The translations under genes were made by a program, and so were the position numbers. A stretch of 32,000 bases of DNA. Source: Sinorhizobium meliloti (GTDB taxonomy: Bacteria; Pseudomonadota; Alphaproteobacteria; Rhizobiales; Rhizobiaceae). Of this stretch, positions 7,405 through 29,908 are shown piece by piece. Each line of letters begins with the position of its first letter. Position 1 is the first letter of the stretch. The stretch is taken from positions 690,001 through 722,000 of the forward strand of contig NZ_JAGIOS010000003.1 of NCBI RefSeq assembly GCF_017876815.1, read 5' to 3'. A model generated the notes under the pieces. It made no database searches. It had not been told where the DNA came from and saw only the letters and a list, made by a program, of their open reading frames with translations.

Positions 7405-7427
7405 GGCGCCACGCGGGCGACCCGAAC

Positions 7428-8369: not shown

Positions 8370-9344
8370 CTAGACTGGACGGGAGGCCGGACCTGGATTT
8401 GGAACCTCAACGTGCCACGTGATGTCAGAAAACGACGAGCTTATGATGGTGCCCCGCTCAGCACGCACCATCGCTGGAATGTCAGCCAATGCACCTATCG
8501 CGGCATCGTGGCCCGTTGCATTGACAAAATGACAGGCGGCCTCGACCTTCGGTCCCATAGACCCGGCAGGAAACGAGAACTCGCCTAGCCGCTGGGGATT
8601 CGTCTTGAAGATTGCCTTCCGTTCCGGGGTTCCCCATCCGGTAAATACAGCTTCTGCGTCGGTCGCCAATATGAGCAGGTCTGCTTCAATATCCCGGGCA
8701 AGAAGGGCCGAGCAGAGATCCTTGTCGATAACCGCTTCCACGCCAATCAGTGTCCGTTCCTTTCCCCGCTCATACATTGTCGGAATTCCGCCACCGCCGG
8801 CACAGATGACAACAGCACCTTTGTCGAGAAGCCATTGGATAGGGCGAAGCTCGAAGATACGCCTGGGAATCGGCGACGCTACCACGCGACGCCATTTATT
8901 CCCGTCCTGCTTGAATACCCATCCTTTTTGCTGATGAAGCTCTCCCGCCTCGCTTGCGTCGTAAACTGGGCCAACAAACTTGGTGGGATTCTGAAATCCG
9001 GGGTCGTTGCCGTCGACCTCAACCATCGTGAGGATTGTTGCCAGCGGCACCTCGAAAGGAAGGACGTTTCCAAGTTCCTGCTCCAGCATGTAGCCGATCA
9101 TGCCCTCGGTTTCGGCTCCAAGTATATCGAGCGGATAGGCCTCCTCGGGCTTGTATGCCGATCCCTGCAGGGCTAATAGCCCGACCTGCGGTCCATTGCC
9201 GTGAGTAACCACTATCTGATGCTCGGCGGCGATCGGCGCTATAGCCTCGGCCGCTATCTTGATGTTCTGACGTTGTACTTCGGCGGTCATCGGCTCCCCT
9301 CGTTTCAGGAGGGCATTGCCACCTAAGGCGATCACGACGCGCAT
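8370..9344 (-). CDS. arcC: Carbamate kinase
   Basis: [24 protein letters not shown]...[11 protein letters not shown] is the carbamate kinase N-terminal signature. The start is 2 nt after the arcB stop, with GGGAGA as SD. Confidence 0.95.
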
Positions 9345-9346
9345 AG

Positions 9347-10351
9347 TCAGTCTCCCAGGGTTGCAACCAGCAGTGCCTTGATCGTATGCATGCGATTCTC
9401 GGCCTGTTCGAATGCTATGTTGGCTTGCGACTCGAACACTTCGTCAGTGACCTCAAGACCGTCCGACATGCCGTAGTCATCGGAAATCTGCTTTCCGATA
9501 GTGGTCTCGGTATCGTGGTAGGCCGGGAGGCAATGCATGAACTTAGTTTGCGGGTTGCCACTTGCGGCCATCAACTCGGCATTGACCTGATAGGGCGTAA
9601 GCAACTGAATGCGTTCTTTCCAGACCTCTTTCGGCTCACCCATCGAAACCCAGACGTCCGTGTGAATGAAGTCAACTCCCTCCACTGCTTCCCTCGGATT
9701 GTCCGTGATCATGAGGCGCGCGCCAGACTGAGCCTTAAGTCCTTTCGCGATAGTCTGATATTCTTCTGACGGCCACAGAGATCGAGGACCGCATATGCGC
9801 ACATCCATCCCCATTAAACAGCCGACAATGAGCAGAGAATGACCCATGTTAGAACGGGTGTCGCCGATATAGGCGTATTTGATTTCGCTGATCGGCTTGT
9901 CGCTATGCTCGCGCATAGTCATAACGTCGGCGATCATCTGCGTGGGATGATACTCGTCGGTGAGGCCATTGTAGACCGGCACACCCGCATATTTCGCGAG
10001 AGTCTCTACACCGGCTTGTGAGGCGCCGCGGTATTCGATGGCGTCGTACATGCGGCCTAGTACGCGGGCGGTGTCCTTGAAAGACTCCTTGTGCCCGATC
10101 TGCGAGCCGGCAGGGTCAAGATAGGTAACATTAGCGCCTTGATCCGAACAGGCAACTTCGAATGCGCATCTTGTACGCGTTGATGTCTTTTCGAAGATCA
10201 GGCAGATTTCCTTGCCTTTCAAGTGTTCTTGTTCGGTCCGCGCATATTTCGCGCGCTTCAGATCGCGGGCGAGATCTACGAGGTAACGAAACTCCCGCGG
10301 TGTGTAGTCCTGCACGGTCAGAAGCGATCGATTTCGGAGATTAAAACTCAT
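9347..10351 (-). CDS. arcB: Ornithine carbamoyltransferase (catabolic, by operon context)
   Basis: [32 protein letters not shown]...[15 protein letters not shown] (the STRTR carbamoyl-phosphate motif), HCLP near the C-terminus, 334 aa. It lies between arcA and arcC. Confidence 0.95.
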
Positions 10352-10387
10352 GGTGTTGCTCCAATTGCTGAAATTCCGTTTGCAAAG

Positions 10388-11617
10388 TCAGTCAGCCGGC
10401 TCTCGCCAGATCGGACAGGTCATGCAATGACCGCCGCCGCGTCCTCGGCCCAATTCGGCGCCGCGGATCGTGATGACCTCGATACCTGCCTTGCGCAGCA
10501 GGGTGTTGGTATACGTGTTCCGATCGTAGGCAACGACAACGCCCGGTTCGAGGGCAACGACATTGTTTCCGTCGTCCCATTGTTCGCGCTCAGCCTCATA
10601 GGCGTTTCCACCGGTGGCGATGGTTCGAAGCTTGTCGATGCCCAATGCTTCGCTGACAACTTCGAGCATGGGTCGGTCTTCCTGCAGCACCTCGAAGTTT
10701 CCCTGGTCGTCGAGCGGGAAAAGGCTGTAACAACGGATCTGATCTACAACGTCGGCGAAGAGCGTCACCACGTCGCGATCGCAGAATGTGAATACCGTGT
10801 CGAGGTGCATCGCCGCCCGGCTCTTCGGCATCAGGCAACCGATGACGCGAGTAGCGGCGCCGGCCTTGAACAACGCCTTGGCAACCTGGCCCACCGCCTG
10901 GTAGGTGGTCCGCTCACCCATTCCCACCAGCAGGATACCGTTGCCGATGGGCATGACGTCGCCGCCTTCCATCGTGGCATTGGCAAACTGCTCGTCGGAG
11001 TCGCCCCACCAAATGTCGAAGGCCGCGCCCTTGAAGGATGGATGAAACTTGTAGACCGCCCTTTGAATCAGGGTTTCCGCGCGCCGTGCCGGCCAGAACA
11101 TTGGGTTGCACGTTACTCCGTTATAGATCCAGCAGGACGGATCGCGCTGAAACAATGTGTTGGGTATCGGAGGGACGACGAACTCGGTGGAGTGGAAGGC
11201 AGATGCCATGAGAGCCTTGCCCTGTCCTTCGGGAAGGTCTGCAATAGAGATCCCACCGATTAGGAAGGCAGCCAGCCGCCTGGAGTCCATTTCCTCCATC
11301 CAAGGACGCATAAGCTCGGCGATCTGGGATCCCATGACGTTCGGGGCGACCCGGCGATCAAGCACGAACTTGCGCGCTTCGGCATCCATGAGGGTGTCGG
11401 TTAGAAGGTCGTGCAACTCAAGGACCTCCACACCTCGTTCCTGCATTTTCAGAACGAAATCGTAATGGTCCTTCTGCGCCTCCTGCACCCAGACGACATC
11501 GTCGAAAAGCAAGTCGTGACAATTACCCGGCGTCAGTCGTTGATGAGCCAAGGAAGGTCTGCAGACCATCACCGTTCTAAGCTTACCGACTTCCGAATAG
11601 ACACCGACAGTACGCAT
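10388..11617 (-). CDS. arcA: Arginine deiminase
   Basis: ORF 10388..11638. [27 protein letters not shown] is the ADI N-terminal signature, and the C-terminal GGGHCMTCP carries the catalytic Cys. Start taken at ATG 11617, 6 nt after AAGGAG. Confidence 0.95.
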
Positions 11618-11801
11618 TGGCATCTCCTTCCGCGACACTCAGACTCGCCTGCGTTGGTCGAAATTCGGCGAAAGTCGGACTGGACGGTCATCCCGGCGCT
11701 TGGGGAAGAGCATTTTGGCCAGAGCCAAACAGTTCTGCAGCCTGTGGATGCCCCCTCAGTATTCGCTGCGGATAGAATAGCTCTTTGCGCAAGCGCCGGC
11801 A

Positions 11802-11815
11802 TTGATCAGGAACAA
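11802..11815 (-). promoter_or_regulatory. Near-consensus FNR/FixK-type box TTGATCAGGAACAA
   Basis: Matches TTGAT-N4-ATCAA at 9 of 10 positions. The centre is about 191 nt upstream of the arcA ATG. It shares the TTGATCAGGA half with the box at 18458. Confidence 0.45.
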
Positions 11816-11910
11816 TTCTCCCGAAAATGTAACTTCGCCGTGCGATCAACTGCTCGCATGCACATTCGCGCCAAAGCAGCCCCAACATTACGGCGGTTTT
11901 TTTGTCGTTC

Positions 11911-11924
11911 TTGACCACGATCAA
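11911..11924. promoter_or_regulatory. FNR/FixK-type anaerobox TTGACCACGATCAA
   Basis: Perfect TTGA-N6-TCAA palindrome. The centre is about 70 nt upstream of ATG 11988 (plus strand) and about 300 nt upstream of arcA (minus strand). It is flanked by the direct repeat TTGTCGTTC (11902-11910 and 11929-11937). Confidence 0.6.
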
Positions 11925-11987
11925 CGACTTGTCGTTCGAGACTAACTAAAAATGGGTTTGCGCCAATTGCAGCGAAGGAATCAGAAA

Positions 11988-12245
11988 ATGAGCACGATTC
12001 CAATCATCCGGGCGATGATGGTAGCCTTCTGTTTATTCCTGGGCGCCGCCGTGCCAGCGGCTGCAGACGAGTATTATGAAGGCATCGACATCAACCAACG
12101 CCAAATCGACGGAAAAAGACAGCCCATTAATACTTACCTACTGAAGCGTAGGGCCGCCGCCCAGAAACCGCCTCCATCAACTACGGGCTCCGTGCCAAAG
12201 CCGGCCCCAGCAGCGCGCGCACCGACAGCCACCGTTCGCCCGTAA
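11988..12245 (+). CDS. Small exported protein, Pro/Ala-rich C-terminus (hypothetical)
   Basis: Inside ORF 11952..12245. The internal ATG 11988 gives MSTIPIIRAMMVAFCLFLGAAVPAAA-DEYYEG, a plausible Sec signal peptide. The FixK-type box is at a suitable distance upstream. Confidence 0.55.
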   Translation: MSTIPIIRAMMVAFCLFLGAAVPAAADEYYEGIDINQRQIDGKRQPINTYLLKRRAAAQKPPPSTTGSVPKPAPAARAPTATVRP

Positions 12246-12465
12246 CCTGGTGCAGATTGCAGAGAGCCCGCCACCGCGGATCAGGTCTGACGCTGCAATC
12301 GCGGACCGGGCTCGCATAGCCCGATGTCTCGCCGCTCCATCTGTCAGGAAAGAAAGATGAGGGGGTGCGCTTCGGCGCGGCGCATTCGAAGCCGAGATCG
12401 CGGCCGTATTGACGTAAGCACGATCTTGATAATCGCGAAAGGCCCGGCCCCTGGGAGGCGGAAAG

Positions 12466-13863
12466 ATGATGAGAGGGACGACCCTTGCACTTGCGGGCGC
12501 AATGACGCTCATGCTGTCGATGCAAGTCAGCGGCTCACTTGCACAAGAACCTACGAAAGCTGCAACCGGTACCGTGTCAACCCCGGAGCCGTTGACTGAC
12601 GACGAACTGGAGGTCCTGGTGGCGCGGATCGCGCTTTACCCGGACGAGTTGGTTGCGCTGATTTCAGCCGTGTCGCTATACCCCTTACAGATCGTTGAGG
12701 CGGAGCGGTTTCTTGAGAACCACAAAAAGAAGCCAGACCTCAAGCCGAAGGAAAGCTGGGATGGCAGCGTAATTTCGCTGCTGAACTATCCCGACGTCGT
12801 CAAGATGATGAGTGACGACCTTGAATGGACGCAGGCCTTCGGTCAGGCAGTCGCCTATCAGCAGAAGGACGTGCTGATTGCGATCCAGCAGTTGCGCGAC
12901 GAAGCGGTAGCCAAGGACATTATCAAGTCGGACGACAAGATGATGTTGGTCCAGGAGGGCGACAACATCATCATCCAGTCGGCGAATCCGGAGACTATCT
13001 ACGTGCCGCAATATCCTCCGGAAATGCTGTACGAGCCGGATTACGCGCCGGTGCCCATCGACTACTATGACACGCCCTATCCCTCCTATTACTACCCAGG
13101 CGCAGCCTTTTTTGCCGGGGCGGTCACCGGCGCGGTCTTCGGCGCTATCGTCGACTGGGACGACTGGGGGGTCTGGGGCGGAGACTGGGGCGGCGACATT
13201 GATGTGGACTGCGACAATTGCTTCAACAACGTCGATATAGACGGCAAGGTCAAGTGGAACGACATCGATTGGAAAAATGTCGACCGCAGCAAGCTGACGT
13301 TCGATCGCGACCAGCTCCAGAAGTTGGACAGGACGAACTTAAAAAACAATATCAAGGCGAACGGCGAAAACAACATCCGCAACCGCGCTACCGAGATCAA
13401 TCGCGATCGGTTAAAGTCGGGACCGGGCGGTGGCGCCAGCCAAATAAAGGACGTGCGCAAGAGCACGCTCGAGGGCCTGAAGGCGCAGCCGAGACGAGAC
13501 GCCGCGGCACGTCCCACCGCAAAGCCCGGCGGCGGACAGGCGGTGGCAAAGGCGAAATCCAGCGGCGCGAAAGCTGGTGTCAACCGCCCCAAGGGCAAGA
13601 AGTCCTCGGCCAATCGGCCAGCAGGCAAGAAGAAGATGGCTTCCAAGGCGCAGAACAGGCCGAAAAAACCGTCCGGGCTGGGCAACGTCAACTCCGGCCG
13701 GCGGGAGGTGTCTGCCTCACGGCGCGGCGGCCACAGCATGGGCGGCGGGCAACGAGGCGGCGGGCGGCCGCAGATGAGTCGCGGCGGCGGCCGGCCGCCG
13801 ATGGGAGGGGCCGGACGTGGTGGTGGACGCGGGGGTGGCGGACGCGGCGGAGGCAGGCGCTGA
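12466..13863 (+). CDS. DUF3300 domain-containing exported protein with an RGG-rich C-terminal tail
   Basis: GGAGG 7 nt upstream of ATG 12466 and a signal peptide MMRGTTLALAGAMTLMLSMQVSGSLAQ. The DUF3300 hallmark is LVARIALYPDELVALISAVSLYPLQIVEAERF. The middle is Tyr/Trp/Asp-rich and includes a hydrophobic stretch AAFFAGAVTGAVFGAIV. The last ~150 aa are basic and low-complexity. Confidence 0.85.
   Translation: MMRGTTLALAGAMTLMLSMQVSGSLAQEPTKAATGTVSTPEPLTDDELEVLVARIALYPDELVALISAVSLYPLQIVEAERFLENHKKKPDLKPKESWDGSVISLLNYPDVVKMMSDDLEWTQAFGQAVAYQQKDVLIAIQQLRDEAVAKDIIKSDDKMMLVQEGDNIIIQSANPETIYVPQYPPEMLYEPDYAPVPIDYYDTPYPSYYYPGAAFFAGAVTGAVFGAIVDWDDWGVWGGDWGGDIDVDCDNCFNNVDIDGKVKWNDIDWKNVDRSKLTFDRDQLQKLDRTNLKNNIKANGENNIRNRATEINRDRLKSGPGGGASQIKDVRKSTLEGLKAQPRRDAAARPTAKPGGGQAVAKAKSSGAKAGVNRPKGKKSSANRPAGKKKMASKAQNRPKKPSGLGNVNSGRREVSASRRGGHSMGGGQRGGGRPQMSRGGGRPPMGGAGRGGGRGGGGRGGGRR
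13720..13860 (+). repeat. GGC/CGG-rich low-complexity coding repeat (RGG/GGR tail)
   Basis: Encodes RRGGHSMGGGQRGGGRPQMSRGGGRPPMGGAGRGGGRGGGGRGGGRR. The same DNA produces long spurious ORFs in other frames (13092..13901 minus, 13218.. plus). Confidence 0.7.
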
Positions 13864-13883
13864 ACGGTTACGGGAGACAGACC

Positions 13884-14834
13884 ATGATCAAGTTCTTGCA
13901 CACACTTCTCCTGGGATCGGCGATCTCACTTGCGCCCGTCGTTGGCCCGATGGACGCATCTCTCGCTCAGACACAGGATTTGGCAGACCTGGACGATTAT
14001 GCTGCCGCGGAAGAGCCCCCGATGTTCGACGACCCGTCGAAGGCGGTGGAAGCATTTAAGTCGGTCCTTGCCGCCAACGACTTCGACGGGCTTGCACGAC
14101 TTCTGGGGCTGAACGCCGCAAAACTGAAGACGGGCGAAGGAGCGATGGAGACCTTCAATCTGGTTCGCGAGGGTGCGGCCCGCAACGTTGTCGTGCGCGA
14201 TCTTGACGGTCGCAAGATCATCGTCATCGGCGACCGGCTCTGGCCACTGCCGTTTCCTATCGTCAAGGACGAGGCCGGCAAATGGGCTTTCGATACCTAT
14301 GTCGGGCTCGAGGAGATCGTCAACCGACGCGTTGGCGAGAACGAATTGGAGGCGATCGAGACGGCGCGCGCCTATATCGAAGCACAGAAGGACTATGTAT
14401 CGCAGGACCGCGATGGGGACGGAGTTTTCGAATACGCACAGAAGCTGATCAGCAGCCCAGGCCAGACGGATGGGCTTTACTGGCCGGCAGATCAGGGGAA
14501 TGGCGAAAGCCCGGTCGGTGAGGCCATCAGCGAGGCGGCGCTAGAGAAGGCAAGGACTGGAGAGGGCTATTTCGGATACCGCTTCCGCGTCCTGACCTCT
14601 CAAGGTGAGAATATCGCCGGCGGCAAGTACGATTACACCATCAACGGCAACATGATCGCCGGCTTCGCGCTGATCACCTGGCCGGTCAAGTATGCCGAAA
14701 CGGGGGTCAAGACCTTCGTTATCAATCAACAGGGCATCGTCTATGAACGAGACCTTGGTCCGAGCACCGAGGAAATCGTGCCATTCATAGATCGTTTCGA
14801 TCCGGATGAAAAATGGAGCGTGGTTACCGACTAG
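13884..14834 (+). CDS. DUF2950 domain-containing exported protein
   Basis: Internal ATG 13884 of ORF 13218..14834 (MIKFLHTLLLGSAISLAPVVGPMDASLAQ, a signal peptide), 20 nt after the DUF3300 stop. The C-terminal pattern GYFGYRFRVLTSQGENIAGGKYDYTINGNMIAGFALITWPVKYAETGVKTFVINQQGIVYERDLG is as I remember the DUF2950 family. Confidence 0.85.
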   Translation: MIKFLHTLLLGSAISLAPVVGPMDASLAQTQDLADLDDYAAAEEPPMFDDPSKAVEAFKSVLAANDFDGLARLLGLNAAKLKTGEGAMETFNLVREGAARNVVVRDLDGRKIIVIGDRLWPLPFPIVKDEAGKWAFDTYVGLEEIVNRRVGENELEAIETARAYIEAQKDYVSQDRDGDGVFEYAQKLISSPGQTDGLYWPADQGNGESPVGEAISEAALEKARTGEGYFGYRFRVLTSQGENIAGGKYDYTINGNMIAGFALITWPVKYAETGVKTFVINQQGIVYERDLGPSTEEIVPFIDRFDPDEKWSVVTD

Positions 14835-15048
14835 ATCACGATGATTTAGATCCATTAAGCATACCGCACATTCAATGAAGCTCGTTGGATCGGCGCCGCG
14901 CTCGCGCTGGAAGACGCACATCTTATTGCCCCCCGGGCAGACGGCAGGCAAGCACGGGTGTCTGGCTCGGCTAGATCCAAGATTTCATACCCGCCATTAG
15001 AAACAGCCTGGCCGTACCGGCACGGCTGAAACAAGGAGGAATAATGTT

Positions 15049-15555
15049 ATGAAGCTAACCCCAAAAACACGGATCGTAGCTGCGACGGCAGTGAGTCTTC
15101 TCTGCAGTGGAACGGTGGTTCAGGCACAGGACATGAAGAAGTACGGCACCGCGGCAGGCTGGGATATCATTGTGAGAGGGGACATGGGCCCCGGCTGCCT
15201 CATCGCGAAGAAGTTGGGTGATGATATGCAGGTTCTGATGGGCATAGACGAGACGACCGGCAGACGCGGCTACATGGCACTCTACACAAAGTTGGCGGCA
15301 AACGTTGGCAGTGGTGAGAAACGCTCCGTAATATTCGACGTTGACGGCCAGAAATTCAGCGGGGAGGCAACCGGTCAGCAGCTGGAGGGATTCGATGGAG
15401 CTTACGTTTGGGTCAACAATCCAGACTTCATCTACGATCTTGCCAAGATGAAGACGCTGACGATCACGCCGGAAGGGCGCAAGCCTTTTGCGCTAAGCCT
15501 TGCCGGAACCGACGCTGCAATGCAGGCCATGCGCGCCTGCCAGGAGGCTAACTAA
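15049..15555 (+). CDS. Exported hypothetical protein (168 aa, two Cys)
   Basis: Strong SD AAGGAGGA upstream of ATG 15049 and a signal peptide MKLTPKTRIVAATAVSLLCSGTVVQAQ. Non-repetitive globular composition; no family assigned with confidence. Confidence 0.8.
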   Translation: MKLTPKTRIVAATAVSLLCSGTVVQAQDMKKYGTAAGWDIIVRGDMGPGCLIAKKLGDDMQVLMGIDETTGRRGYMALYTKLAANVGSGEKRSVIFDVDGQKFSGEATGQQLEGFDGAYVWVNNPDFIYDLAKMKTLTITPEGRKPFALSLAGTDAAMQAMRACQEAN

Positions 15556-15578
15556 GTAGGTATCGCCTGCGCGCACAC

Positions 15579-15592
15579 TTGACTGCGATCAA
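15579..15592. promoter_or_regulatory. FNR/FixK-type anaerobox TTGACTGCGATCAA
   Basis: Perfect TTGA-N6-TCAA palindrome, starting 23 nt after the stop of the 15049..15555 gene. It sits at the start of a 397-bp region with no credible ORF, and its centre is about 367 nt upstream of the antiporter ATG 15953. Confidence 0.5.
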
Positions 15593-15952: not shown

Positions 15953-17296
15953 ATGTCAGCACCGTCAAGTGGCAAAAGCCTGGGTCTGGCCGCCTGTACC
16001 GCCATCGTCGTCGGTAACATGGTTGGCTCCGGCTTCTACCTCTCGCCGGCGGCAGTTGCTCCCTACGGCAATCTCGCTATCGTGATTTGGATCGTGATGG
16101 GAGCGGGTGCGATCTGTCTCGGGCTGACGTTCGCACGGCTCGCAAAGCTCTCTCCGGCAGTCGGCGGGCCTTATGCATATACGCGCCTTGCCTATGGAGA
16201 CTTTCCGGGCTTTCTTATCGCTTGGGGATATTGGATTTCCATCTGGGCGTCCCTGCCCGTTATCGCCGTGGCGTTCGCCGGCGTGGTCATCGATTTTTTT
16301 CCGTTCCTCCGCGGGCGCGGAACGGCGACGCTGCTCACGTTGGGCGTGATCTGGCTTGTCGTGCTCGTCAACTTACGCGGCGTCCACGCGGCCGGGCTCT
16401 TTTCGGAAATCACCACCTACGCTAAGATGATCCCGTTCGGGGCCGTCGCGCTGCTGGGCCTGTTTTACATCGACTTCTCTCACTTTGCCGACTTCAATCC
16501 AAGCGGCCAGCCGCTCCTTCAGGCGAGCGCTGCGTTGGCGCCGCTTACCATGTTCGCCTATTTGGGGCTTGAATCTGCCACGGTGCCCGCTGGCGATGTG
16601 CGCGACGCCGAACGTACGATCCCGCGTTCAACGGTGCTTGGAATCGCCATTGCTGTAACGCTGTACGTTCTGGGCACCATTGTCGTTATGGGGTTGGTGC
16701 CGAGAGAGGAGCTCGTCCACTCGGTGGCGCCCTTCTCCGAGGCAGCAAGGAGAATGTGGGGACCGGCCGGTGAGCTAGCGATTTCTCTCGCAGTTGTCCT
16801 GTCATCAATCGGAGCGCTGAACGGCTGGACATTGCTGATGGGGCAGGTGCCAATGGCGGCGGCGCGAGACGGATTGTTTCCACCTCTGTTCAGCCGGCTC
16901 TCGGTGCGAAATGTGCCCGCCACGGGGATTGTCGTTTCGGCGACTCTGGCGACGATTCTCGTGCTCGTTCAGGCAGCCGGTTCCGAGGGCTTCTCATCCA
17001 TTTATCGTCTATTCGTCGGCTTAAGCACAATGACCGCCGTTATACCTTATGCGTTCTGCGCTCTTGCCAGCAGTCTCGTCTCCGCACGGGTTAGCGGAGG
17101 GACTGTAATACCGCGTGTAACCCTTATCGAGCTTGTTGGTTTCGCTTTTGCAATTTTCACGCTTTACGGCTGTGGTGCGGAGCCTGTTCTCTACGGGCTA
17201 TTGCTGCTGTTGCTGAGCATCCCCGTTTACATATGGCAGCGACGGCGGAGCTTCGTGCCGGGTGATGATCCTAGCCGGGGCCAGACGCCTGATTGA
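15953..17296 (+). CDS. APC-superfamily basic amino acid/polyamine antiporter (APA family, AdiC/ArcD-like)
   Basis: 447 aa and about 12 TM. Motifs shared with AdiC-type exchangers include VVGNMVGSGFYLSPA, GGPYAYTR, LGLESATVPAGDVRDAERTIPRS and ARDGLFPPLFSR. Confidence 0.9.
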   Translation: MSAPSSGKSLGLAACTAIVVGNMVGSGFYLSPAAVAPYGNLAIVIWIVMGAGAICLGLTFARLAKLSPAVGGPYAYTRLAYGDFPGFLIAWGYWISIWASLPVIAVAFAGVVIDFFPFLRGRGTATLLTLGVIWLVVLVNLRGVHAAGLFSEITTYAKMIPFGAVALLGLFYIDFSHFADFNPSGQPLLQASAALAPLTMFAYLGLESATVPAGDVRDAERTIPRSTVLGIAIAVTLYVLGTIVVMGLVPREELVHSVAPFSEAARRMWGPAGELAISLAVVLSSIGALNGWTLLMGQVPMAAARDGLFPPLFSRLSVRNVPATGIVVSATLATILVLVQAAGSEGFSSIYRLFVGLSTMTAVIPYAFCALASSLVSARVSGGTVIPRVTLIELVGFAFAIFTLYGCGAEPVLYGLLLLLLSIPVYIWQRRRSFVPGDDPSRGQTPD

Positions 17297-17414
17297 TTGC
17301 GATAACTTAGAGCGGATGGGGGTGGAAAACCGCGTGCACCTTTCCTCATCCCGCTCCGGGCAGGCAGCAGCGCCTGGTACCGGTGTGTGGTTCGTTCCGT
17401 ACCTCGAGGGCGAT

Positions 17415-18341
17415 ATGTTCAACGAGCAGACCTTCCTTCGGGCTTCCATCGCCGCCACCGTTGTCGTCGCGGCATTTGGAATTATCCTGGGACTTCTGTC
17501 CGGGTCATTCTCCATCACATTTGACGGCGTCTACTCGCTCGCCGATGCCGGAATGACTGTCTTGGCGCTTTGGGTTTCCAGGCTGATTGCGGTAGCGGCA
17601 ACGGGCAATGCGTTGTCCGGCCGTATGCGGGAACGTTTCACGATGGGGTTCTGGCACCTCGAGCCGATCGTCTTGCTTCTCAACGGTACATTGCTGATGG
17701 CCATCGCCGTTTATGCGTTGATCAATGCGCTGACCAGCGTTTTGAAAGGGGGCCATCAGCTCCAGTTCGGCTTCGCCATTGCCTATGCTGCAGTGACCGT
17801 GTTCATTTGTACGATGATGGCGGTGATCGGTGCGCGAGCTAATCGCGGGCTTCGATCGAATTTTATCGCGCTTGATGTCAAGGCCTGGATCATGTCGGGG
17901 GGCATCGCGTCGGCGCTGCTGGTTGCTTTCATAATCGGCCATGCGGTCCAGAAAACGGCATTGCATTGGATGACCTCATACGTCGATCCCGTGGTGTTGG
18001 CTTTTGTCTGCATCGTCATCATCCCCCTGCCGATCGGTACGGTTAAGTCGGCTCTTGCCGATATCCTGCTGATCACCCCAAGCGAGCTCAGGGCTCGGGT
18101 GGAGCGCATCGCCGACGAAACGGTGCGGAAGCAGGGCTTTCTTTCTTACCGGGCCTACGTCGCCAGGGTTGGGCGCGCCAAGCAGATAGAGCTTCATTTC
18201 ATCGTGCCCAGCAACCTTCCTCCTCAACCGGTAGAGTCGTGGGACCGAATTCGAGATGAGATTGGGATTGCTATTGGCGATGAAGGCCACAATCGCTGGT
18301 TGACAATCGCCTTTACCGCAGACGAGAGGTGGGCAGAGTGA
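17415..18341 (+). CDS. Cation diffusion facilitator (CDF) family transporter
   Basis: Inside ORF 17262..18341. Start taken at ATG 17415 (MFNEQTFLRASIAATVVVAAFGIILGLLSGSFSITFDGVYSLADAG). Six TM segments plus a C-terminal cytoplasmic domain (RAYVARVGRAKQIELHFIVP). An alternative start is at 17316. Confidence 0.85.
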   Translation: MFNEQTFLRASIAATVVVAAFGIILGLLSGSFSITFDGVYSLADAGMTVLALWVSRLIAVAATGNALSGRMRERFTMGFWHLEPIVLLLNGTLLMAIAVYALINALTSVLKGGHQLQFGFAIAYAAVTVFICTMMAVIGARANRGLRSNFIALDVKAWIMSGGIASALLVAFIIGHAVQKTALHWMTSYVDPVVLAFVCIVIIPLPIGTVKSALADILLITPSELRARVERIADETVRKQGFLSYRAYVARVGRAKQIELHFIVPSNLPPQPVESWDRIRDEIGIAIGDEGHNRWLTIAFTADERWAE

Positions 18342-18457
18342 GCACGAGCCCTGCCCGCGTCGTTGGCGTCGCCGTCGCCGATCCGTCGGCCGGTGCCCGA
18401 TCGAACACGATTATCCGACCTGATTCCGGTAATGAGTATAAGCTCGCGGGCATAGGT

Positions 18458-18471
18458 TTGATCAGGATCAA
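18458..18471 (+). promoter_or_regulatory. Consensus FNR/FixK-type anaerobox TTGATCAGGATCAA
   Basis: 10/10 match to TTGAT-N4-ATCAA. The centre is about 85 nt upstream of ATG 18550. A class II (-41.5) promoter would give a leader of about 44 nt. Confidence 0.65.
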
Positions 18472-18549
18472 CGACGCGCCGGCGCCGCGCGTGTACGACT
18501 TACAACGAAAGCTGAGAATTCGCCGCCGCGTCCGCAGGAGCCTGGGACC

Positions 18550-20820
18550 ATGGAGTTCTACAAGGCATTCCCCATCGCTGTCATCGATGAAGATTACGAG
18601 GGTAAAAACGCGGCCGGGCGGGGCATGCGCAGCCTCGCAGAGGCGATTGAAAAGGAAGGTTATCGGGTCGTTGGAGGGCTCACCTATGAGGATGCACGCC
18701 GCCTCGTGAACGTCTTCAACACCGAGTCCTGCTGGCTGATTTCAGTCGACGGGACGGAATCAAGTACGACGCGATGGGAGATTTTGGCCGAGCTGCTCGC
18801 CGCGAAACGCTCCCGGAACAACCTGCTGCCAATCTTTCTGTTTGGCGACGATACAACGGCGGAAATGGTGCCGGCGCCCGTGCTGCGCCACGCCAATGCC
18901 TTTATGCGTCTTTTCGAGGATTCTCCGGAATTCATGGCGCGCGCGATCGTGCGCGCCGCGCAGAATTATCTTGAGAGGCTTCCGCCTCCAATGTTCAAGG
19001 CGTTGATGGAATACACGCTTCACGGCGCCTATTCCTGGCACACGCCAGGGCACGGAGGCGGGGTGGCGTTTCGCAAGAGCCCGGTTGGCCAGCTCTTTTA
19101 TTCGTTTTTCGGAGAGAACACACTGAGGTCGGACATTTCTGTGTCCGTCGGCAGCGTTGGTTCGCTCCTCGATCATGTTGGGCCGATTGGCGAGGGTGAG
19201 CGCAATGCCGCTCGTATATTTGGTGCGGATGAGACGCTGTTCGTTGTCGGCGGCACATCGACCGCCAATAAGATCGTATGGCACGGCATGGTCACTCGGA
19301 ACGACCTCGTCCTCTGCGACCGAAACTGCCATAAGTCTATCCTGCACTCGCTGATCATGACGGGTGCAACGCCGATTTACCTGACGCCCTCACGCAACGG
19401 CCTCGGCATCATCGGGCCGATTGCGAAGGAGCAATTTACCCCAGAGGCAATTGCGCACAAGATCGCCGCCAGTCCGTTTGCCAGTGAGACGAACGGTAAA
19501 GTGCGCCTGATGGTAGTGACAAACTCCACCTATGATGGGCTCTGCTACAATGTAGATGAAATCAAATCGGCTCTCGGCGATGCGGTGGAGGTACTGCATT
19601 TCGACGAGGCCTGGTTTGCTTACGCCAATTTTCACGAATTCTACGATGGTTATCACGCGATCTCTTCAACGAAGCCCGCGCGCTCGCAAGACGCCATAAC
19701 ATTCGCAACCCAGTCGACGCATAAGCTGCTGGCCGCCTTCTCTCAAGCTTCAATGCTTCATGTGCAGCATGCCGTGGCGAAGCAACTCGACATCACACGC
19801 TTCAACGAAGCGTTCATGATGCACACATCGACATCGCCGCAATATGGGATCATCGCCTCGTGCGACGTGGCTGCTGCCATGATGGAGCAGCCCGCCGGGC
19901 GGGCGCTGGTACAGGAGACCATTGACGAGGCCATGAGTTTCCGTCGAGCCGTCAACGCCGTGCGGACACAGATGCAGGATTCCTGGTGGTTCGAAGTCTG
20001 GGAGCCCCCCATCGCGGATCGGGCACCGAGCGACGCCAGGTCGGATTGGCTTCTTAAGCCCAACGACGCGTGGCATGGTTTCGAAGACCTGGCTGAGAAT
20101 CACGTGATGGTTGACCCGATCAAGGTAACGATCCTTTCGCCCGGACTCAATGCGGGCGGAGCGATGCTGGAGCATGGTATTCCGGCTGCAGTCGTCACGA
20201 AGTTCCTTTCTTCTCGCCGGATCGAAATCGAGAAAACGGGTCTCTACTCTTTCCTGGTGCTCTTCTCCATGGGGATCACACGGGGCAAGTGGAGCACCCT
20301 GATCACCGAGCTCTTGAACTTCAAAGACCTCTATGATGCCAATGCGCCTCTTTCACGCGCCCTTCCCGCCCTCGCGGCAGCCCATCCGGACGTCTACCGT
20401 GCAATGGGGCTCAGAGATCTTTGCGAGAAAATTCACGACGTGTACCGCAGCGACGACGTGCCGAATGCCCAGCGCGAGATGTACACCGTGCTGCCCGAAA
20501 TGGCACTGCGCCCGGCGGACGCCTACAACCGCTTGGTCAAGGGGTGCGTCGAAAGCATCGATATCGACGAATTGATCGGCCGAACACTCGCAGTCATGAT
20601 TGTACCCTATCCTCCGGGGATCCCGCTCATCATGCCTGGCGAACGGATCACCGCCGCCACAAGATCGATCCAGGACTATCTCGTCTACGCCCGGAGTTTC
20701 GACAGGAAATTCCCGGGATTTGAGACGGACATCCACGGGCTCCGTTTCGTCGCTAACCCGAGTGGACGGAGATATCTCGTGGATTGCATCGTCGAGGAGG
20801 GGCAGGATGATACCGCGTGA
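18550..20820 (+). CDS. Wing-domain fold-type I PLP-dependent Orn/Lys/Arg decarboxylase (CadA/LdcC/AdiA-like, lysine or arginine type)
   Basis: 756 aa. It aligns by eye along its length with E. coli CadA and AdiA: FRKSPVGQLFYSFFGENTLRSDISVSVGSVGSLLDH, GGTSTANKIV, DRNCHKS, the PLP-Lys motif QSTHKLLAAFSQASMLHV, SMGITRGKWSTL and PYPPGIPLIMPGE...FPGFETDIHGL. Confidence 0.95.
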   Translation: MEFYKAFPIAVIDEDYEGKNAAGRGMRSLAEAIEKEGYRVVGGLTYEDARRLVNVFNTESCWLISVDGTESSTTRWEILAELLAAKRSRNNLLPIFLFGDDTTAEMVPAPVLRHANAFMRLFEDSPEFMARAIVRAAQNYLERLPPPMFKALMEYTLHGAYSWHTPGHGGGVAFRKSPVGQLFYSFFGENTLRSDISVSVGSVGSLLDHVGPIGEGERNAARIFGADETLFVVGGTSTANKIVWHGMVTRNDLVLCDRNCHKSILHSLIMTGATPIYLTPSRNGLGIIGPIAKEQFTPEAIAHKIAASPFASETNGKVRLMVVTNSTYDGLCYNVDEIKSALGDAVEVLHFDEAWFAYANFHEFYDGYHAISSTKPARSQDAITFATQSTHKLLAAFSQASMLHVQHAVAKQLDITRFNEAFMMHTSTSPQYGIIASCDVAAAMMEQPAGRALVQETIDEAMSFRRAVNAVRTQMQDSWWFEVWEPPIADRAPSDARSDWLLKPNDAWHGFEDLAENHVMVDPIKVTILSPGLNAGGAMLEHGIPAAVVTKFLSSRRIEIEKTGLYSFLVLFSMGITRGKWSTLITELLNFKDLYDANAPLSRALPALAAAHPDVYRAMGLRDLCEKIHDVYRSDDVPNAQREMYTVLPEMALRPADAYNRLVKGCVESIDIDELIGRTLAVMIVPYPPGIPLIMPGERITAATRSIQDYLVYARSFDRKFPGFETDIHGLRFVANPSGRRYLVDCIVEEGQDDTA

Positions 20821-23170
20821 TGTGAAGGCTCCGACCGTCCCCATTCCATTCCACAAGCTGCTTAAGGTCGTGGCATTCGTCGACGAACGCAATCTCGAAA
20901 CGAAGAGACTTCTTGCGCACATTGTCGCGGAGAATTTCGAAGTCGAGTTGCGCGGCAGCTACAACGCCGACGTGTCCGAGGACGCTTCGGTTGGTGCCTA
21001 TATTGGGACGGTCGAGGGCGGACGGCTCGAAGATGCCCGGAAGTTCGTCCGTGCGGTCAGAGACATCGGATTCCGCACGCCGCTATGGGCCCTCGCAGAC
21101 TCCCACGGTATTGCGGACATTGCGGCGATTAAAATGGCCGGCGAAGTCGATGGCTTCGTTTATCTTGGGCAGCAGACACCGGCGTTCTACGCAAAGCAGA
21201 TCATTTCAAGTCTGGTCAATTACGGCAAGACGCTCCTCCCGCCGTTTTTCGGCGGCCTCATGGCTTACGATGGAGAAGCCAACATCGCGTTCGACTGTCC
21301 CGGACACCAAGGCGGACAGTTTTACCGGAAGTCGCCCGCAGGCCAGCTCTTTTTCAATTATTTCGGCGAAAGCATATTTCGCGCCGATCTTTGCAATGCC
21401 GATGTCGACCTTGGCGACCTGCTAATCCATGAAGGGCCAGCGGCCGAGGCGCAGAAGAATGCGGCAAGGATTTTCGGCGCGGACCGGACCTACTTCATTC
21501 TGAACGGCACAAGCACATCGAACAAAGTAGTTACGAACGCGGTACTGCGCGCAGGCGACCTCGTGTTGTTCGACCGCAACAATCACAAATCGCTTCATCA
21601 GGGCGCGCTGGTGCAGGCAGGAGCGATACCAGTTTACCTGCCAACCTCACGCAACTCGTTCGGGATGATCGGTGCCGTGGACTGGGACGCCTGGGACGAA
21701 GCCAGCCTGCGCCGGCAGATCGAAAGGCATCCCCTGGTCGAGGACAAGACGCGAGCCAGTGCAGAGCGACCGTTCCGACTCGCCTGCATCCAACTTGCGA
21801 CCTATGACGGCACTATTTACAACGTCCGCAAGGTGTTGGAACAAATCGGACACCTGTGCGACTACGTACTCTGGGACGAGGCGTGGATCGGCTACAACGC
21901 TTTCCACCCATTGTTTGAAGACCACAGTCCGATGCGGATCGACACGCTTGATGCCGAAATGCCGGGATTGTTCTCAACGCAATCCGTCCACAAGCAAGGG
22001 GCGGGCTTTTCGCAAGCCTCGCAGATTCACAAGCGCGACGAGCACATCCGTGATCAGCGCCGCTATGTCGAACATAAGCGCTTCAACGAGTCGCTTCTCA
22101 TGCATGTTTCGACATCACCATTCTACCCGCTATTCGCCTCGTTGGACGTCAATGCCAAGATCCACGAGGGCAAGGCTGGTGAAATGCTCTGGGATCGCTG
22201 TATCGAGCTGGGTATCGAGGCACGCAAGAAGCTCAGAGAATTCACCCGGTACTACGAGTCGACGGGTGCGGGGCCCCAGGAGCAGTGGTTCTTCGACCCC
22301 TTCGTACCCGATGTCGTCACGATCTCGGGCTCCAAACATACCGAGGATGTTGTCGAGTCCCGTTGGGAGGCGCTCCCGACGGAGGTCATCAAACGGGAAC
22401 AGCAGTGCTGGCGCTTCCGCCCAGGGGCTTCATGGCATGGATATTCCGGCTACTCCGATGGCTACGCAATGGTGGATCCAAACAAGCTCACGCTTCTCAC
22501 TCCAGGCATAGACCGTGCGACCGGGGAGTATCGAGACTTCGGCATCCCGGCAACGATCGTTGCCAATTATCTTCGCGAACAGCGCATCGTTCCCGAGAAG
22601 TGCGACCTCAACAGCATACTGTTTCTGCTCACACCGGCCGAGGACGAGAGCAAGCTCAACACGCTGATAGCCAAGTTGGTGAAGTTCAAGAACTTATGGG
22701 ATCGGGACGCACCTTTGGCCGAGGTTCTACCAACCGTGTTTGCGGCGAACAGAGAGCGCTATGCAGGATACACACTCCGGCAGGTCTGCAAAGAGATGCA
22801 CGACTTCTATCGGCAAGCAGGGGTCAAGGAATTGCAGCGCCTCTGCTTCCGGGCGGAGAGCATGCCCGAGCCCGCAATGCCGCCGAAAGCGGCTTATGAA
22901 GCCCTCGTGGCAAACGAAGTTGATTATGTGGCACTCGACGAGGCTTTCGGCAGGATTTCGGCCACGCTCGCGTTGATCTATCCGCCGGGCATAGGCGTCA
23001 TAGTCCCCGGGGAGCGCTGGGACGAAAGGGCGCGGCCGATGCACAACTATTTCCTGGCATTCCAAGAGTCCTTCAACCGTTTCCCCGGCTTCAATTACGA
23101 GGTCCAGGGTGTGTTTCAGGAGCGCGTTGACGGCCAGATCAAATTCTACACCTACGCCGTGCGCGAGTAA
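20807..23170 (+). CDS. speF: Ornithine decarboxylase, SpeC/SpeF type (wing-domain fold-type I PLP enzyme)
   Basis: Internal ATG 20807 of ORF 20600..23170, with GAGGAGG 6 nt upstream. It overlaps the preceding gene by 14 nt. Close by-eye match to E. coli SpeC/SpeF: LPPFFGGL, FDCPGHQGGQFYRKSPAGQLFFNYFGESIFRADLCNADVDLGDLLIHEG, NGTSTSNKVV, DRNNHKS, TQSVHKQGAGFSQASQIHK and STSPFYPLFASLDVNAKIHEG. It is followed by potE, as in the E. coli speF-potE operon. Confidence 0.93.
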   Translation: MIPRDVKAPTVPIPFHKLLKVVAFVDERNLETKRLLAHIVAENFEVELRGSYNADVSEDASVGAYIGTVEGGRLEDARKFVRAVRDIGFRTPLWALADSHGIADIAAIKMAGEVDGFVYLGQQTPAFYAKQIISSLVNYGKTLLPPFFGGLMAYDGEANIAFDCPGHQGGQFYRKSPAGQLFFNYFGESIFRADLCNADVDLGDLLIHEGPAAEAQKNAARIFGADRTYFILNGTSTSNKVVTNAVLRAGDLVLFDRNNHKSLHQGALVQAGAIPVYLPTSRNSFGMIGAVDWDAWDEASLRRQIERHPLVEDKTRASAERPFRLACIQLATYDGTIYNVRKVLEQIGHLCDYVLWDEAWIGYNAFHPLFEDHSPMRIDTLDAEMPGLFSTQSVHKQGAGFSQASQIHKRDEHIRDQRRYVEHKRFNESLLMHVSTSPFYPLFASLDVNAKIHEGKAGEMLWDRCIELGIEARKKLREFTRYYESTGAGPQEQWFFDPFVPDVVTISGSKHTEDVVESRWEALPTEVIKREQQCWRFRPGASWHGYSGYSDGYAMVDPNKLTLLTPGIDRATGEYRDFGIPATIVANYLREQRIVPEKCDLNSILFLLTPAEDESKLNTLIAKLVKFKNLWDRDAPLAEVLPTVFAANRERYAGYTLRQVCKEMHDFYRQAGVKELQRLCFRAESMPEPAMPPKAAYEALVANEVDYVALDEAFGRISATLALIYPPGIGVIVPGERWDERARPMHNYFLAFQESFNRFPGFNYEVQGVFQERVDGQIKFYTYAVRE

Positions 23171-23197
23171 TCGCCTCTTCCGAGGGAGGATCAGGTC

Positions 23198-24556
23198 ATG
23201 ACTGAACATTCGCTCAACGTTGCCATGGAAGCTTCGTCGAAGAAGAAAATGAACCTGGTCCAGCTCACCTTTATCGTTGCGGTGAACATGATGGGCTCGG
23301 GAATAATAATGCTGCCGGCGAACATGGCGCAGGTCGGTGCCATTTCACTTCTGTCCTGGCTGGTGACCGCGGTCGGCTCGATGGCGATCGCTTACGGATT
23401 TGCACAAGCCGGTCTATTCAACCAGCGTCCCGGAGGGATGTCGGCTTATGCGGAGGATGCCTACGGTAAACCGGGCTATTTCCTCGTTTTCTTACTCTAC
23501 TTTCTTTCGCTCGCTGTCGGCAATGTCGCGATCGGCATTTCGGCCGTCGGCTATCTCGCCGGGTTCTTCCCATGGCTGACGTCCACGCCGATTGCGACTT
23601 GCGTGAGCCTGATCATCCTCCTGTGGCTTACGACTGTAGCTAACTTTGGCGGGCCGCGCGTCACGGGCCGTATCGGTTCAATCACGGTATGGGGAGTGAT
23701 CCTCCCCGTAGGGCTGCTCTGTATTATCGGTTGGGCATGGTTCAGTTCGGAGGTTTTCGCGGCTGCCTGGAATCCCAATGGACTGACCCTCGTTCAAGGC
23801 ATGGGATCGAGCATCTCGCTGACGCTCTGGGCGTTTCTGGGGATGGAATCGGCTGCACAGAACTCCGATGCGGTGGAAAATCCCAAGCGGGACGTTCCTC
23901 TTGCCTGCCTGTTCGGGACGCTCGGCGCCGCTATTATCTACATTCTCTCGACCACAGTCATTCAGGGGATCGTGCCGAACGCTGAGCTTGCCGCGTCGAC
24001 GGGACCGTTCGCGCTTGCCTATGCCACGATGTTCAACCCCGCCATCGGATCAGTCGTCATGGCGCTGGCTGTTCTCGCCTGCGTCGGCTCGCTACTCGGC
24101 TGGCAGTTCACCATCGCGCAAACGGCGCGGGCCGCCGCGGACGAGCGCATGTTTCCGTCCCTTTTTTCGCGGGTGAACGAGATGGGTGCGCCCGTAACCG
24201 GGATGATCGTCATGGGCGTTGTTCAGTCTCTGCTGGCGCTCATGACGATTTCACCCACGCTCAACGAGCAGTTTGCAGCGCTCGTCAATCTGGCGGTCGT
24301 CACCAACGTGCTTCCCTACATCATCTCCCTTTCCGCACTCTTCGTCATGATGAGGGCGGCTGGCGTTTCAGAAAGCAAGTTCCGCTTGAATTCTTCGATC
24401 GCGATCGTAGGCATGCTCTATAGCGTCTTTGCGATTTATGCGTCCGGAAAGGATGCCGTGCTGGGCGGTATGCTCGTGACCGGAATTGCCTTCATCATTT
24501 ACGGCCTTATCGCGCCTCGCTTCACCCCAAGACCGGGAATTGTGGGGACAGCGTGA
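23198..24556 (+). CDS. potE: Putrescine:ornithine antiporter (PotE-like, APA family)
   Basis: GGGAGGA SD upstream. Extended similarity to E. coli PotE as I recall it: VQLTFIVAVNMMGSGIIMLPANMAQVGAISLLSWLVTAVGSMA, VANFGGPRVTGRIGSITVWGVILPV, WAFLGMESAAQNSDAVENPKRDVP, CVGSLLGWQFTIAQ and LVNLAVVTNVLPYI. Confidence 0.9.
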   Translation: MTEHSLNVAMEASSKKKMNLVQLTFIVAVNMMGSGIIMLPANMAQVGAISLLSWLVTAVGSMAIAYGFAQAGLFNQRPGGMSAYAEDAYGKPGYFLVFLLYFLSLAVGNVAIGISAVGYLAGFFPWLTSTPIATCVSLIILLWLTTVANFGGPRVTGRIGSITVWGVILPVGLLCIIGWAWFSSEVFAAAWNPNGLTLVQGMGSSISLTLWAFLGMESAAQNSDAVENPKRDVPLACLFGTLGAAIIYILSTTVIQGIVPNAELAASTGPFALAYATMFNPAIGSVVMALAVLACVGSLLGWQFTIAQTARAAADERMFPSLFSRVNEMGAPVTGMIVMGVVQSLLALMTISPTLNEQFAALVNLAVVTNVLPYIISLSALFVMMRAAGVSESKFRLNSSIAIVGMLYSVFAIYASGKDAVLGGMLVTGIAFIIYGLIAPRFTPRPGIVGTA

Positions 24557-24585
24557 GGTCAAGAGAAGCGTTGGGAGGATGCAAC

Positions 24586-29904: not shown

Positions 29905-29908
29905 AATT

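Follow-up and report, generated by a model that had tools for sequence, protein, structure and literature searches.

We analysed a stretch of 32,000 nucleotides from Sinorhizobium meliloti (contig NZ_JAGIOS010000003.1, positions 690,001 to 722,000 of the forward strand), hereafter called the window. It contains the genes arcA, arcB and arcC of the arginine deiminase (ADI) pathway and, beginning 4.3 kb from the start of arcA, a group of genes for amino acid decarboxylases and exchangers. An original prediction, made from the sequence alone, had interpreted these genes as one composite module leading from arginine through ornithine to putrescine. The genes that it named are all present at the positions given in Table 1, as judged from the table of open reading frames (ORFs) and from NCBIfam and Pfam family scans. 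The arc genes are packed with gaps of 36 nt (10352-10387) and 2 nt (9345-9346), just as had been described. The APA-family exchanger, the long decarboxylase, the ornithine decarboxylase (ODC) and the PotE exchanger, reported to lie some 4 kb away from them, were all recovered by the family scans.

Bases 8000-25600 of the window match the pSymA megaplasmid of S. meliloti RU11/001 at 100% identity and that of strain 1021 at 96%. The exact decarboxylase protein encoded at 18550-20820 is also found, with the same neighbours, on pSmeSM11c of S. meliloti SM11. In strain 1021 the equivalent genes run from SMa0697 (arcC) to SMa0678 (potE), and the locus is an already annotated stretch of the symbiosis megaplasmid of a model organism. 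These genes have been tied to arginine catabolism in bacteroids, to acid tolerance and to natural variation in partner quality, and their correct names matter for metabolic models of the nodule.

Table 1 Features of the arcABC-decarboxylase locus in window coordinates. Scores are in bits, with model cutoffs in brackets.
Feature	Position	Strand	Evidence or remark
arcC, carbamate kinase (SMa0697 equivalent)	8370..9344	-	NF009008 490.8 (cutoff 361); TIGR00746 378 (cutoff 358); annotated arcC in pSymA records
arcB, ornithine carbamoyltransferase (SMa0695 equivalent)	9347..10351	-	NF002470 557.1 (cutoff 545); Pfam OTCace_N, OTCace; 2 nt upstream of arcC
arcA, arginine deiminase (arcA1, SMa0693 equivalent)	10388..11617	-	TIGR01078 496.9 (cutoff 489.1); 36 nt upstream of arcB
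Degenerate second box	11802-11815	.	arcA intergenic region
FixK/FNR-type box TTGACCACGATCAA	11911..11924	.	Divergent intergenic region between arcA and the small ORF-DUF3300 unit
Small ORF, signal-peptide-like N-terminus (97 aa, or 85 aa from internal Met)	11952-12245	+	Precedes DUF3300/DUF2950 pair
DUF3300/DUF2950 gene pair	12466-13863 and 13884-14834	+	After small ORF
FixK/FNR-type box TTGACTGCGATCAA	15579..15592	.	361 nt upstream of carrier start codon
APA-family basic amino acid/amine exchanger (SMa0684 equivalent, published 'adiC'/'adiC1')	15953..17296	+	Below every NCBIfam equivalog cutoff
Cation diffusion facilitator (CDF) transporter (SMa0683 equivalent)	17415..18341	+	Pfam Cation_efflux 87
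Perfect FixK/FNR-type palindrome TTGATCAGGATCAA	18458..18471	.	78 nt before LdcA-type start codon
LdcA-subfamily wing-domain pyridoxal phosphate-dependent decarboxylase, probably lysine decarboxylase (SMa0682 equivalent), 756 aa	18550..20820	+	PDB 6Q6I match, identities, neighbour-joining tree
ODC, SpeF/SpeC lineage (Odc1, SMa0680 equivalent), 787 aa	20807..23170	+	NF010092 913.6 (cutoff 794)
PotE, putrescine/ornithine antiporter (SMa0678 equivalent)	23198..24556	+	NF007938 704.7 (cutoff 409); TIGR04299 571.1 (cutoff 560)
Orphan periplasmic family-3 amino-acid-binding protein (SMa0677 equivalent)	24586..25527	+	Pfam SBP_bac_3; last gene of conserved four-gene core
FixK-type box	30536	.	139 nt upstream of DUF3302-like gene (DUF3302/HlyD unit)

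The arginine deiminase genes and the location of arcD

The three ADI enzyme genes, arcA, arcB and arcC, are encoded together, and each scores above its NCBIfam cutoff. The longest ORF of arcA reaches a GTG at 11638, and public assemblies call a product of 409 aa. Among the ORFs of the window, no transporter gene separates arcA from the next gene or follows arcC directly. For the local operon, the description of an ADI operon without arcD was correct, but it does not extend to the replicon. In strain 1021, a tandem gene pair reaches 547.7 and 543.9 bits on TIGR03810. These scores are slightly below the equivalog cutoff of 591, but both genes pass the subfamily model TIGR00905. These genes, arcD1 and arcD2 (SMa1667 and SMa1668), are directly followed by arcA2 (SMa1670), a second arginine deiminase gene, and the cluster lies about 560 kb from arcA1. 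The supplement of the CATCH-N study lists SMa1668 as ArcD2. The window's own replicon carries the same 4.5-kb arcD1-arcD2-arcA2 cluster at 235929-240470, some 530 kb away from the locus described here. The ADI pathway is split over two loci, not deprived of its exchanger, and ornithine export is available. With arcD1 and arcD2 on this replicon, a route in which ornithine is trapped inside the cell loses its main premise, and the chief reason to postulate an unusual closed route falls away.

The operon resembles the Anr-activated arcDABC operon of Pseudomonas aeruginosa in the order and tight packing of arcA, arcB and arcC, in the FNR-family box upstream and in the supply of ATP from arginine under oxygen limitation. 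It differs by the lack of a local arcD, by the two arcD paralogues and the second arcA located at a distance, and by its probable regulator, FixK under FixLJ instead of Anr.

The second decarboxylase belongs to the LdcA subfamily

The 756-aa decarboxylase, SMa0682 in strain 1021, has been published as 'OdcB' or as a putative Adc, and the original prediction had called it a CadA/AdiA-like lysine/arginine decarboxylase. Sequence comparison places it in the LdcA subfamily instead. When compared with solved structures, it scores 968.6 bits to LdcA of P. aeruginosa (PDB-id 6Q6I) and at most 593 bits to AdiA, LdcI and LdcC. It is 57.5% identical to LdcA over the full length, while its identities to CadA, AdiA and SpeF are 40.6%, 38.4% and 29.8%, respectively (E. 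coli references are from K-12). Its scores remain below the equivalog cutoffs of AdiA (NF011603, 688.8 against 1167) and of CadA (NF011929, 652.5 against 1056). In a neighbour-joining tree, a simple distance tree with few taxa and without bootstrap support, it groups with Pseudomonas LdcA, apart from the LdcI/C, Adc and Odc groups.

LdcA, a lysine decarboxylase initially expected to be an arginine enzyme, defines a fourth subfamily, which has been described as ancestral in Betaproteobacteria and Pseudomonadaceae (Carriel et al. 2018). In addition to the sequence identity, the locus shares with that of P. aeruginosa LdcA (PA1818) a related APA permease, 42% identical to the carrier of the window, which follows ldcA in some Pseudomonas loci. 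However, the window enzyme belongs to a separate, mainly alphaproteobacterial branch, in which the members examined are 73-100% identical to it, and it is translationally coupled to the ODC gene.

Purified SMa0682 had an activity of 0.00 on both ornithine and arginine in the CATCH-N study. In that assay it was also inactive on 5-guanidino-2-oxopentanoate and weakly active on 5-amino-2-oxopentanoate at pH 8; lysine was not among the listed substrates. In many related clusters, the LdcA-type and ODC genes are accompanied by a separate, true AdiA-type gene (52-63% identity to E. coli AdiA). This co-occurrence argues that the three enzymes differ in substrate. Since a separate AdiA-type enzyme adjoins it there, the LdcA-type enzyme is not the arginine enzyme in these clusters. 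Lysine is probably its substrate, which is the best inference from the family to which it belongs.

Ornithine decarboxylase, PotE and the orphan binding protein

The ODC is 49.4% identical to E. coli SpeF. It passes the general ODC model and fails the SpeF-specific model TIGR04301 (896.7 bits against a cutoff of 1310). PotE shares 55% identity with its E. coli counterpart and has the same residues at every AdiC-derived binding-site position compared. The proposal of a SpeC/SpeF-like ODC with a PotE-like exchanger holds, as the cutoffs of NF010092, NF007938 and TIGR04299 are all passed. Odc1 has been described as ornithine-specific and of low activity.

As in E. coli speF-potE, an ODC with a wing domain and an aspartate aminotransferase fold is directly followed, after a gap of 27 nt, by a PotE orthologue above equivalog cutoffs. 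The arrangement in S. meliloti differs from that of E. coli in its control, which would lie with a FixK box ahead of the preceding decarboxylase gene, and in the orphan binding-protein gene that always follows potE. The ODC gene has no leader region of its own, because its start overlaps the LdcA-type gene by 14 nt. No room was seen upstream of it for an ornithine-sensing leader of the speFL type, and an Rfam scan gave nothing.

Several related loci have two or three decarboxylases and only PotE as antiporter within the sequence examined, and some of the relatives with three decarboxylases are among them. PotE of this clade may be a broad exchanger of basic amino acids and diamines, to judge from this gene content. 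A similar case is Ligilactobacillus saerimneri, where two adjacent long decarboxylase genes, for lysine and ornithine, are served by one exchanger of the PotE type. However, the lysine enzyme of the lactobacilli is close to ODC (59% identity), whereas the enzyme of the window falls into the separate LdcA lineage. S. meliloti also encodes another APA carrier nearby.

The related loci L019, L022, L095, L092-L094 and L016-L018 each have three genes for long decarboxylases, of the AdiA type, the LdcA type and ODC. The binding-protein gene follows potE in every related locus that extends past potE (L007-L022, L092-L096), with no permease or ATPase genes of the ATP-binding cassette (ABC) type nearby. 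Its product has a signal-peptide-like N-terminus and scores 68.5 bits, below cutoff, on the model of lysine/arginine/ornithine-binding proteins, TIGR01096. In these loci, a binding protein is consistently tied to an APC-type antiporter.

The APA-family carrier at position 15953

The original prediction had named this carrier AdiC-like and had let arginine enter the cell through it. Its best equivalog match is indeed AdiC, but the score of 281.7 bits on NF007929 is about half of the cutoff of 574, and the score on the CadB model NF007754 is 178.3 bits against a cutoff of 585. The identity of the carrier amounts to 31% with E. coli AdiC, 27% with CadB and PotE, and 26-28% with ArcD1 and ArcD2. 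Outside its own clade, its nearest relatives, at 42% identity, are a second permease of Mesorhizobium and the permease directly downstream of ldcA in two Pseudomonas loci, and the three form one group in the tree.

At aligned positions, the carrier keeps Asn22, Ser26, Gly27, Tyr93, Glu208, Trp293, Ser357 and Tyr365 of the AdiC site. However, it has a leucine at the position of Asn101, a substrate-site residue of AdiC, and a phenylalanine at the outer gate, Trp202; Asn and Trp are retained there in AdiC, CadB, PotE and the Pseudomonas permeases. All of the 120 top-scoring database homologues have the Leu101/Phe202 pair; they share 73% identity or more with the query, and most of them are from soil metagenomes. 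This clade is a minor point, but one where something new may genuinely be found. For AdiC, W202 and W293 have been reported to act as gates (PMC8406831).

We rejected the carrier as an AdiC orthologue on the basis of its identity of 31%, its score at half the cutoff and the replacement of both Asn101 and Trp202. The label AdiC-like reflected the best of weak matches. Nothing speaks for this carrier as the entry point of arginine for ADI, and it also lacks an AdiA-type partner: no AdiA-type gene was found on the S. meliloti and Rhizobium megaplasmids, where the best match (41%) is SMa0682 itself; the chromosome was not searched.

In Mesorhizobium and in alphaproteobacterial metagenome-assembled genomes (MAGs), a carrier of this type lies directly upstream of the LdcA-type gene, with no AdiA-type gene in the flanks examined. 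All five loci found with the carrier as seed contain an LdcA-type gene, and four of them an AdiA-type gene. Loci seeded with the LdcA-type gene favoured the LdcA-type enzyme as partner of the carrier, but a firm claim to this effect was dropped because of these four loci.

According to the published annotation, SMa0682 is a biodegradative arginine decarboxylase, and SMa0684 is its AdiC-type arginine/agmatine antiporter; the AdiA/AdiC-like and SpeF/PotE-like pairs would then serve acid resistance. These names are in use in the S. meliloti literature, AdiC is the best-scoring characterised relative of the carrier, and pipelines of the Joint Genome Institute label members of the carrier clade as arginine:agmatine antiporters. 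Moreover, the carrier of the metagenome locus L095 directly precedes a true AdiA-type gene. We nevertheless consider this annotation quite improbable. The enzyme clusters with LdcA (57.5% against 38.4% identity, 968 against 583 bits for AdiA), it had no activity on arginine once purified, and both proteins are far under the AdiA and AdiC equivalog cutoffs. The loci that hold both AdiA-type and LdcA-type genes argue for different substrates, and the S. meliloti megaplasmids have no AdiA-type gene that could be found. Should SMa0682 act on lysine and SMa0684 not be AdiC, no enzyme would remain for the arginine decarboxylase/agmatine branch assigned to this locus, and cadaverine production in bacteroids would deserve attention.

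Carriers of the SMa0684 type might also form an uncharacterised APA subfamily with an undescribed exchange, for example of lysine and cadaverine in a lineage other than CadB, or a mixed exchange of arginine and putrescine. Such a carrier could link ADI to the decarboxylase cassette without ArcD in Rhizobiaceae, a speculative idea to which we give little credence.

A Gcw_chp (PF09694) gene immediately precedes the carrier gene in contigs from soil metagenomes (L092-L094, 8152-8991; L096, 8123-8677); it has no counterpart in the window.

FixK boxes and oxygen control

Four boxes of the form TTGA-N6-TCAA occur in the window, at 11911, 15579, 18458 and 30536, where 0.2 are expected from shuffled sequences. 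A stricter palindrome that tolerates one mismatch gives five, against 0.81 expected. The boxes are conserved in position in Rhizobium and Sinorhizobium. S. medicae, S. meliloti LMB1, Sinorhizobium sp. K101 and Rhizobium sp. NZLR1 also have a box in the arcA intergenic region, at 290-660 nt from the arcA start. The box of the carrier has an identical counterpart in S. medicae (L010), and the Rhizobium orthologue (L007) has one some 200 nt ahead of it. Loci L007-L010, of Rhizobium and Sinorhizobium, have a box 68-97 nt upstream of the LdcA-type start codon. The LdcA-type and arcA-intergenic boxes are absent from Mesorhizobium and from the other loci examined.

The genes arcA1BC, SMa0680 and SMa0682 are listed in the literature as members of the FixJ regulon, and their expression rises together with fix and nos genes in a tolC mutant. 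The paper that reconstructed the FixK regulon does not discuss these genes. The proposal of a single oxygen signal is supported, because the boxes are enriched and conserved in position and because membership of arcA1BC, SMa0680 and SMa0682 in the FixJ regulon has been published. Low-oxygen control of these genes is already known.

A scan of 7400-27000 for promoters and terminators gave sites that were no more numerous than in shuffled sequence, and for this reason the operon boundaries are drawn from gaps and boxes. An Rfam scan of the whole window found neither a riboswitch nor a leader. The roughly 360 nt between the box at 15579 and the carrier start codon (15593-15952) contain no convincing ORF and have no Rfam match; they could possibly be a long leader or an unannotated small gene or RNA.

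Conservation of the cassette and its linkage to arcABC

The four-gene core, composed of the LdcA-type, ODC, PotE and binding-protein genes, is present in Sinorhizobium, Rhizobium, Mesorhizobium, uncultured alphaproteobacterial MAGs and one Burkholderiales MAG. Permianibacter has the core with a displaced ODC gene, and Dongia has the other three genes without the ODC gene. The CDF gene and the carrier are often near the core. Among the related loci examined, arcABC adjoins the cassette only in Rhizobium and Sinorhizobium. The decarboxylase cassette is clearly an independent and portable unit, which picked up arcABC and FixK boxes only in these two genera. This is ordinary evolutionary tinkering, and the pattern is useful for annotation.

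The linkage between arcABC and the cassette is kept across three different gene orders, in Rhizobium sp. NZLR1, S. meliloti LMB1 and Sinorhizobium sp. K101, and it is accompanied in those three genomes by cax, ppk2, HlyD/DUF3302 and AI-2E genes. That the genes stay linked despite rearrangement speaks, with moderate weight, for a functional tie between ADI and the cassette. The cassette of Dongia has a solitary carbamate kinase gene beside it.

One uncultured gammaproteobacterial MAG (L089) has, at 9500-19400, an ldcA-type gene, a gene for an ArcD-type antiporter, a C-terminal fragment of an ODC gene, and arcA, arcB and arcC. As this ODC is merely a C-terminal fragment, we did not accept the locus as an independent linkage of ADI and ODC, and it counts as weak support. 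Six TTGA-N6-TCAA boxes occur in 22 kb of this locus.

A probable layout as three separate modules

We regard the locus as an island of pSymA under FixLJ/FixK control, active at low oxygen and in bacteroids, in which three self-contained amino acid modules lie side by side, the first two linked through ornithine, and do not form one fused pathway. This is the explanation that we favour, and we hold it with some reserve. In the ADI module, arcA1BC would turn arginine via citrulline into ornithine with release of NH3 and CO2 and with ATP through carbamate kinase, while arginine/ornithine exchange would be supplied in trans by arcD1 and arcD2. In the ornithine module, Odc1 and PotE would couple the decarboxylation of ornithine to putrescine with an electrogenic exchange and consume one cytoplasmic proton. 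In the LdcA-type module, lysine is the most probable substrate, and the carrier of the SMa0684 type is a likely candidate for the exchange partner, though the gene neighbourhoods are mixed on this.

Ornithine that is exported by ArcD could be taken up by PotE, and ornithine made inside by ArcB could be decarboxylated. In the simplest form of this coupling, ArcD would swap arginine for ornithine, PotE would swap that ornithine for putrescine, and Odc1 would consume a proton. The net result would be the conversion of arginine to putrescine with ATP, proton consumption and an electrogenic step. No new transporter is needed for this coupling, because the established properties of the ArcD, PotE and Odc1 families suffice. 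A real flux from ADI to ODC is plausible in S. meliloti.

The idea of a route from arginine to putrescine has precedents. Weissella halotolerans combines ADI with ornithine decarboxylation, accumulates putrescine and generates proton motive force. Strain W22 unites both pathways in one organism, and this is the physiology that had been proposed for the window; however, Weissella is a Gram-positive food isolate and its regulation is unrelated. The original prediction overstated the departure of this arrangement from known systems, since the CATCH-N study and polyamine reviews also discuss the genes. FixJ dependence, a symbiotic role and the nearby decarboxylase/antiporter pairs are already published. 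What stood of its overall interpretation is the co-location of the genes, their co-regulation and a plausible flow from arginine through ornithine to putrescine; the premise of a missing arcD, the AdiC-like importer and the lysine/arginine decarboxylase did not.

That prediction had arginine enter by the 15953 carrier, ornithine from ArcA and ArcB decarboxylated by Odc1, putrescine leave by PotE, and ATP synthesis coupled to proton consumption within the cell. Ornithine is a plausible shared intermediate, as it supposed, but decarboxylation in place of export is not required, as export is available through arcD1 and arcD2. Such a closed route would fit a local arc operon without a transporter, the shared regulation through FixK boxes and the coupling of ADI and ODC that works in W. 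halotolerans. In Rhizobium sp. NZLR1, moreover, the carrier gene directly adjoins arcC. Against it are the two arcD genes on the same replicon, and the properties of the carrier, which is 31% identical to AdiC and has Asn101 and Trp202 replaced. The carrier is not an ADI component, because its clade is widespread in Mesorhizobium and soil metagenome loci without arc genes within flanks of about 9-10 kb. In addition, an exchanger needs a counter-substrate, and we know of no description of arginine/putrescine exchange in the APA family. PotE exchange, as characterised, needs external ornithine. Taken together, a fused internal route is hardly likely.

Published data from bacteroids are consistent with modules that share ornithine. 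In the CATCH-N study, 60% of citrulline and 81% of ornithine were labelled from 13C-arginine in bacteroids. The symbiosis genes obtained there by transposon sequencing (TnSeq) include arcABC, SMa0684, SMa0682, SMa0680 and SMa0678, and the authors argued that ammonia release and decarboxylations consume protons in the acidic symbiosome. A preprint of a genome-wide association study associated natural variation in potE, SMa0682 and cax with partner quality. A 2025 paper on partner quality does not discuss these genes, and the main text of an acid-shift transcriptome paper does not mention them.

Several points weigh against the three-module explanation. The odc1 mutant has normal polyamine levels and grows normally at pH 5.5. 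The authors of the LdcA paper warn of substrate shifts within these decarboxylase clades. The box of the arcA intergenic region sits about 35-70 nt upstream of the small-ORF/DUF3300 unit on the plus strand, compared with 293 nt from arcA, and it may mainly serve that divergent unit. For the carrier and for potE, the boxes are what suggests dependence on FixK. The metagenome locus L095 has the order carrier, AdiA-type, LdcA-type, ODC and PotE, and the AdiA-type gene is next to the carrier in three others, so that an arginine/agmatine role for the carrier is possible. Finally, near-wild-type symbiosis with alfalfa is said to need no more than about 75 kb of pSymA, which is hard to square with the TnSeq claim of a symbiotic requirement.

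Some of these points would also fit co-location without metabolic coupling, where a FixK-regulated accessory island with ion transporters and ppk2 holds genes of unrelated roles, such as polyamine supply, nitrogen scavenging and ion homeostasis, and no meaningful flux runs from ADI to ODC. The decarboxylase core is widespread without arc genes, many unrelated transporters are co-conserved with the island, and the low specific activity of Odc1, the unaltered polyamines and pH 5.5 growth of its mutant and the reported dispensability of most of pSymA for symbiosis agree with such a view. It is at odds with the persistence of the arcABC-cassette linkage through several rearrangements in two genera. 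The carbamate kinase gene by the Dongia cassette, the row of ldcA, arcD-type, odc-fragment and arcABC genes in L089, and the association of potE, SMa0682 and cax variation with partner quality also speak against it. Overall, we judge an absence of coupling to be unlikely.

The gene names in PMC7268258 are inconsistent. SMa1668 is 'adiC2' in the main text and 'arcD2' in the datasets, where 'adiC2' is SMa0678. The datasets also give SMa0680 as 'adcA1' and SMa0682 as 'odcB' or 'Arginine decarboxylase', and re-users should check locus tags.

Neighbouring genes

Loci of Rhizobium, Sinorhizobium and Mesorhizobium have the CDF gene next to the cassette. The DUF3300/DUF2950 pair accompanies arcABC in Sinorhizobium, and not in Rhizobium sp. 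NZLR1. Potassium-channel, CDF, Ca2+/H+ exchanger, VIT1-like, ppk2 and DUF3302/HlyD genes surround the amino acid genes (6934-7404, 17415-18341, 25736-27555, 27710-28564 and 28675-30397). In Rhizobium sp. NZLR1 and S. meliloti LMB1, most of these ion-transport, ppk2 and HlyD genes are conserved along with the island. An ORF of 146 aa at 7215-7655 with a 30-residue match to MIP was regarded as spurious, because it overlaps the potassium-channel gene in another frame. At 205-6454, the window has genes for a sugar ABC transporter (a binding protein and two permeases), for mandelate racemase/enolase-family and dihydrodipicolinate synthase-family proteins and for a 2-keto-3-deoxy-galactonokinase. 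This looks like a sugar-acid catabolic cluster unrelated to the ADI and decarboxylase genes.

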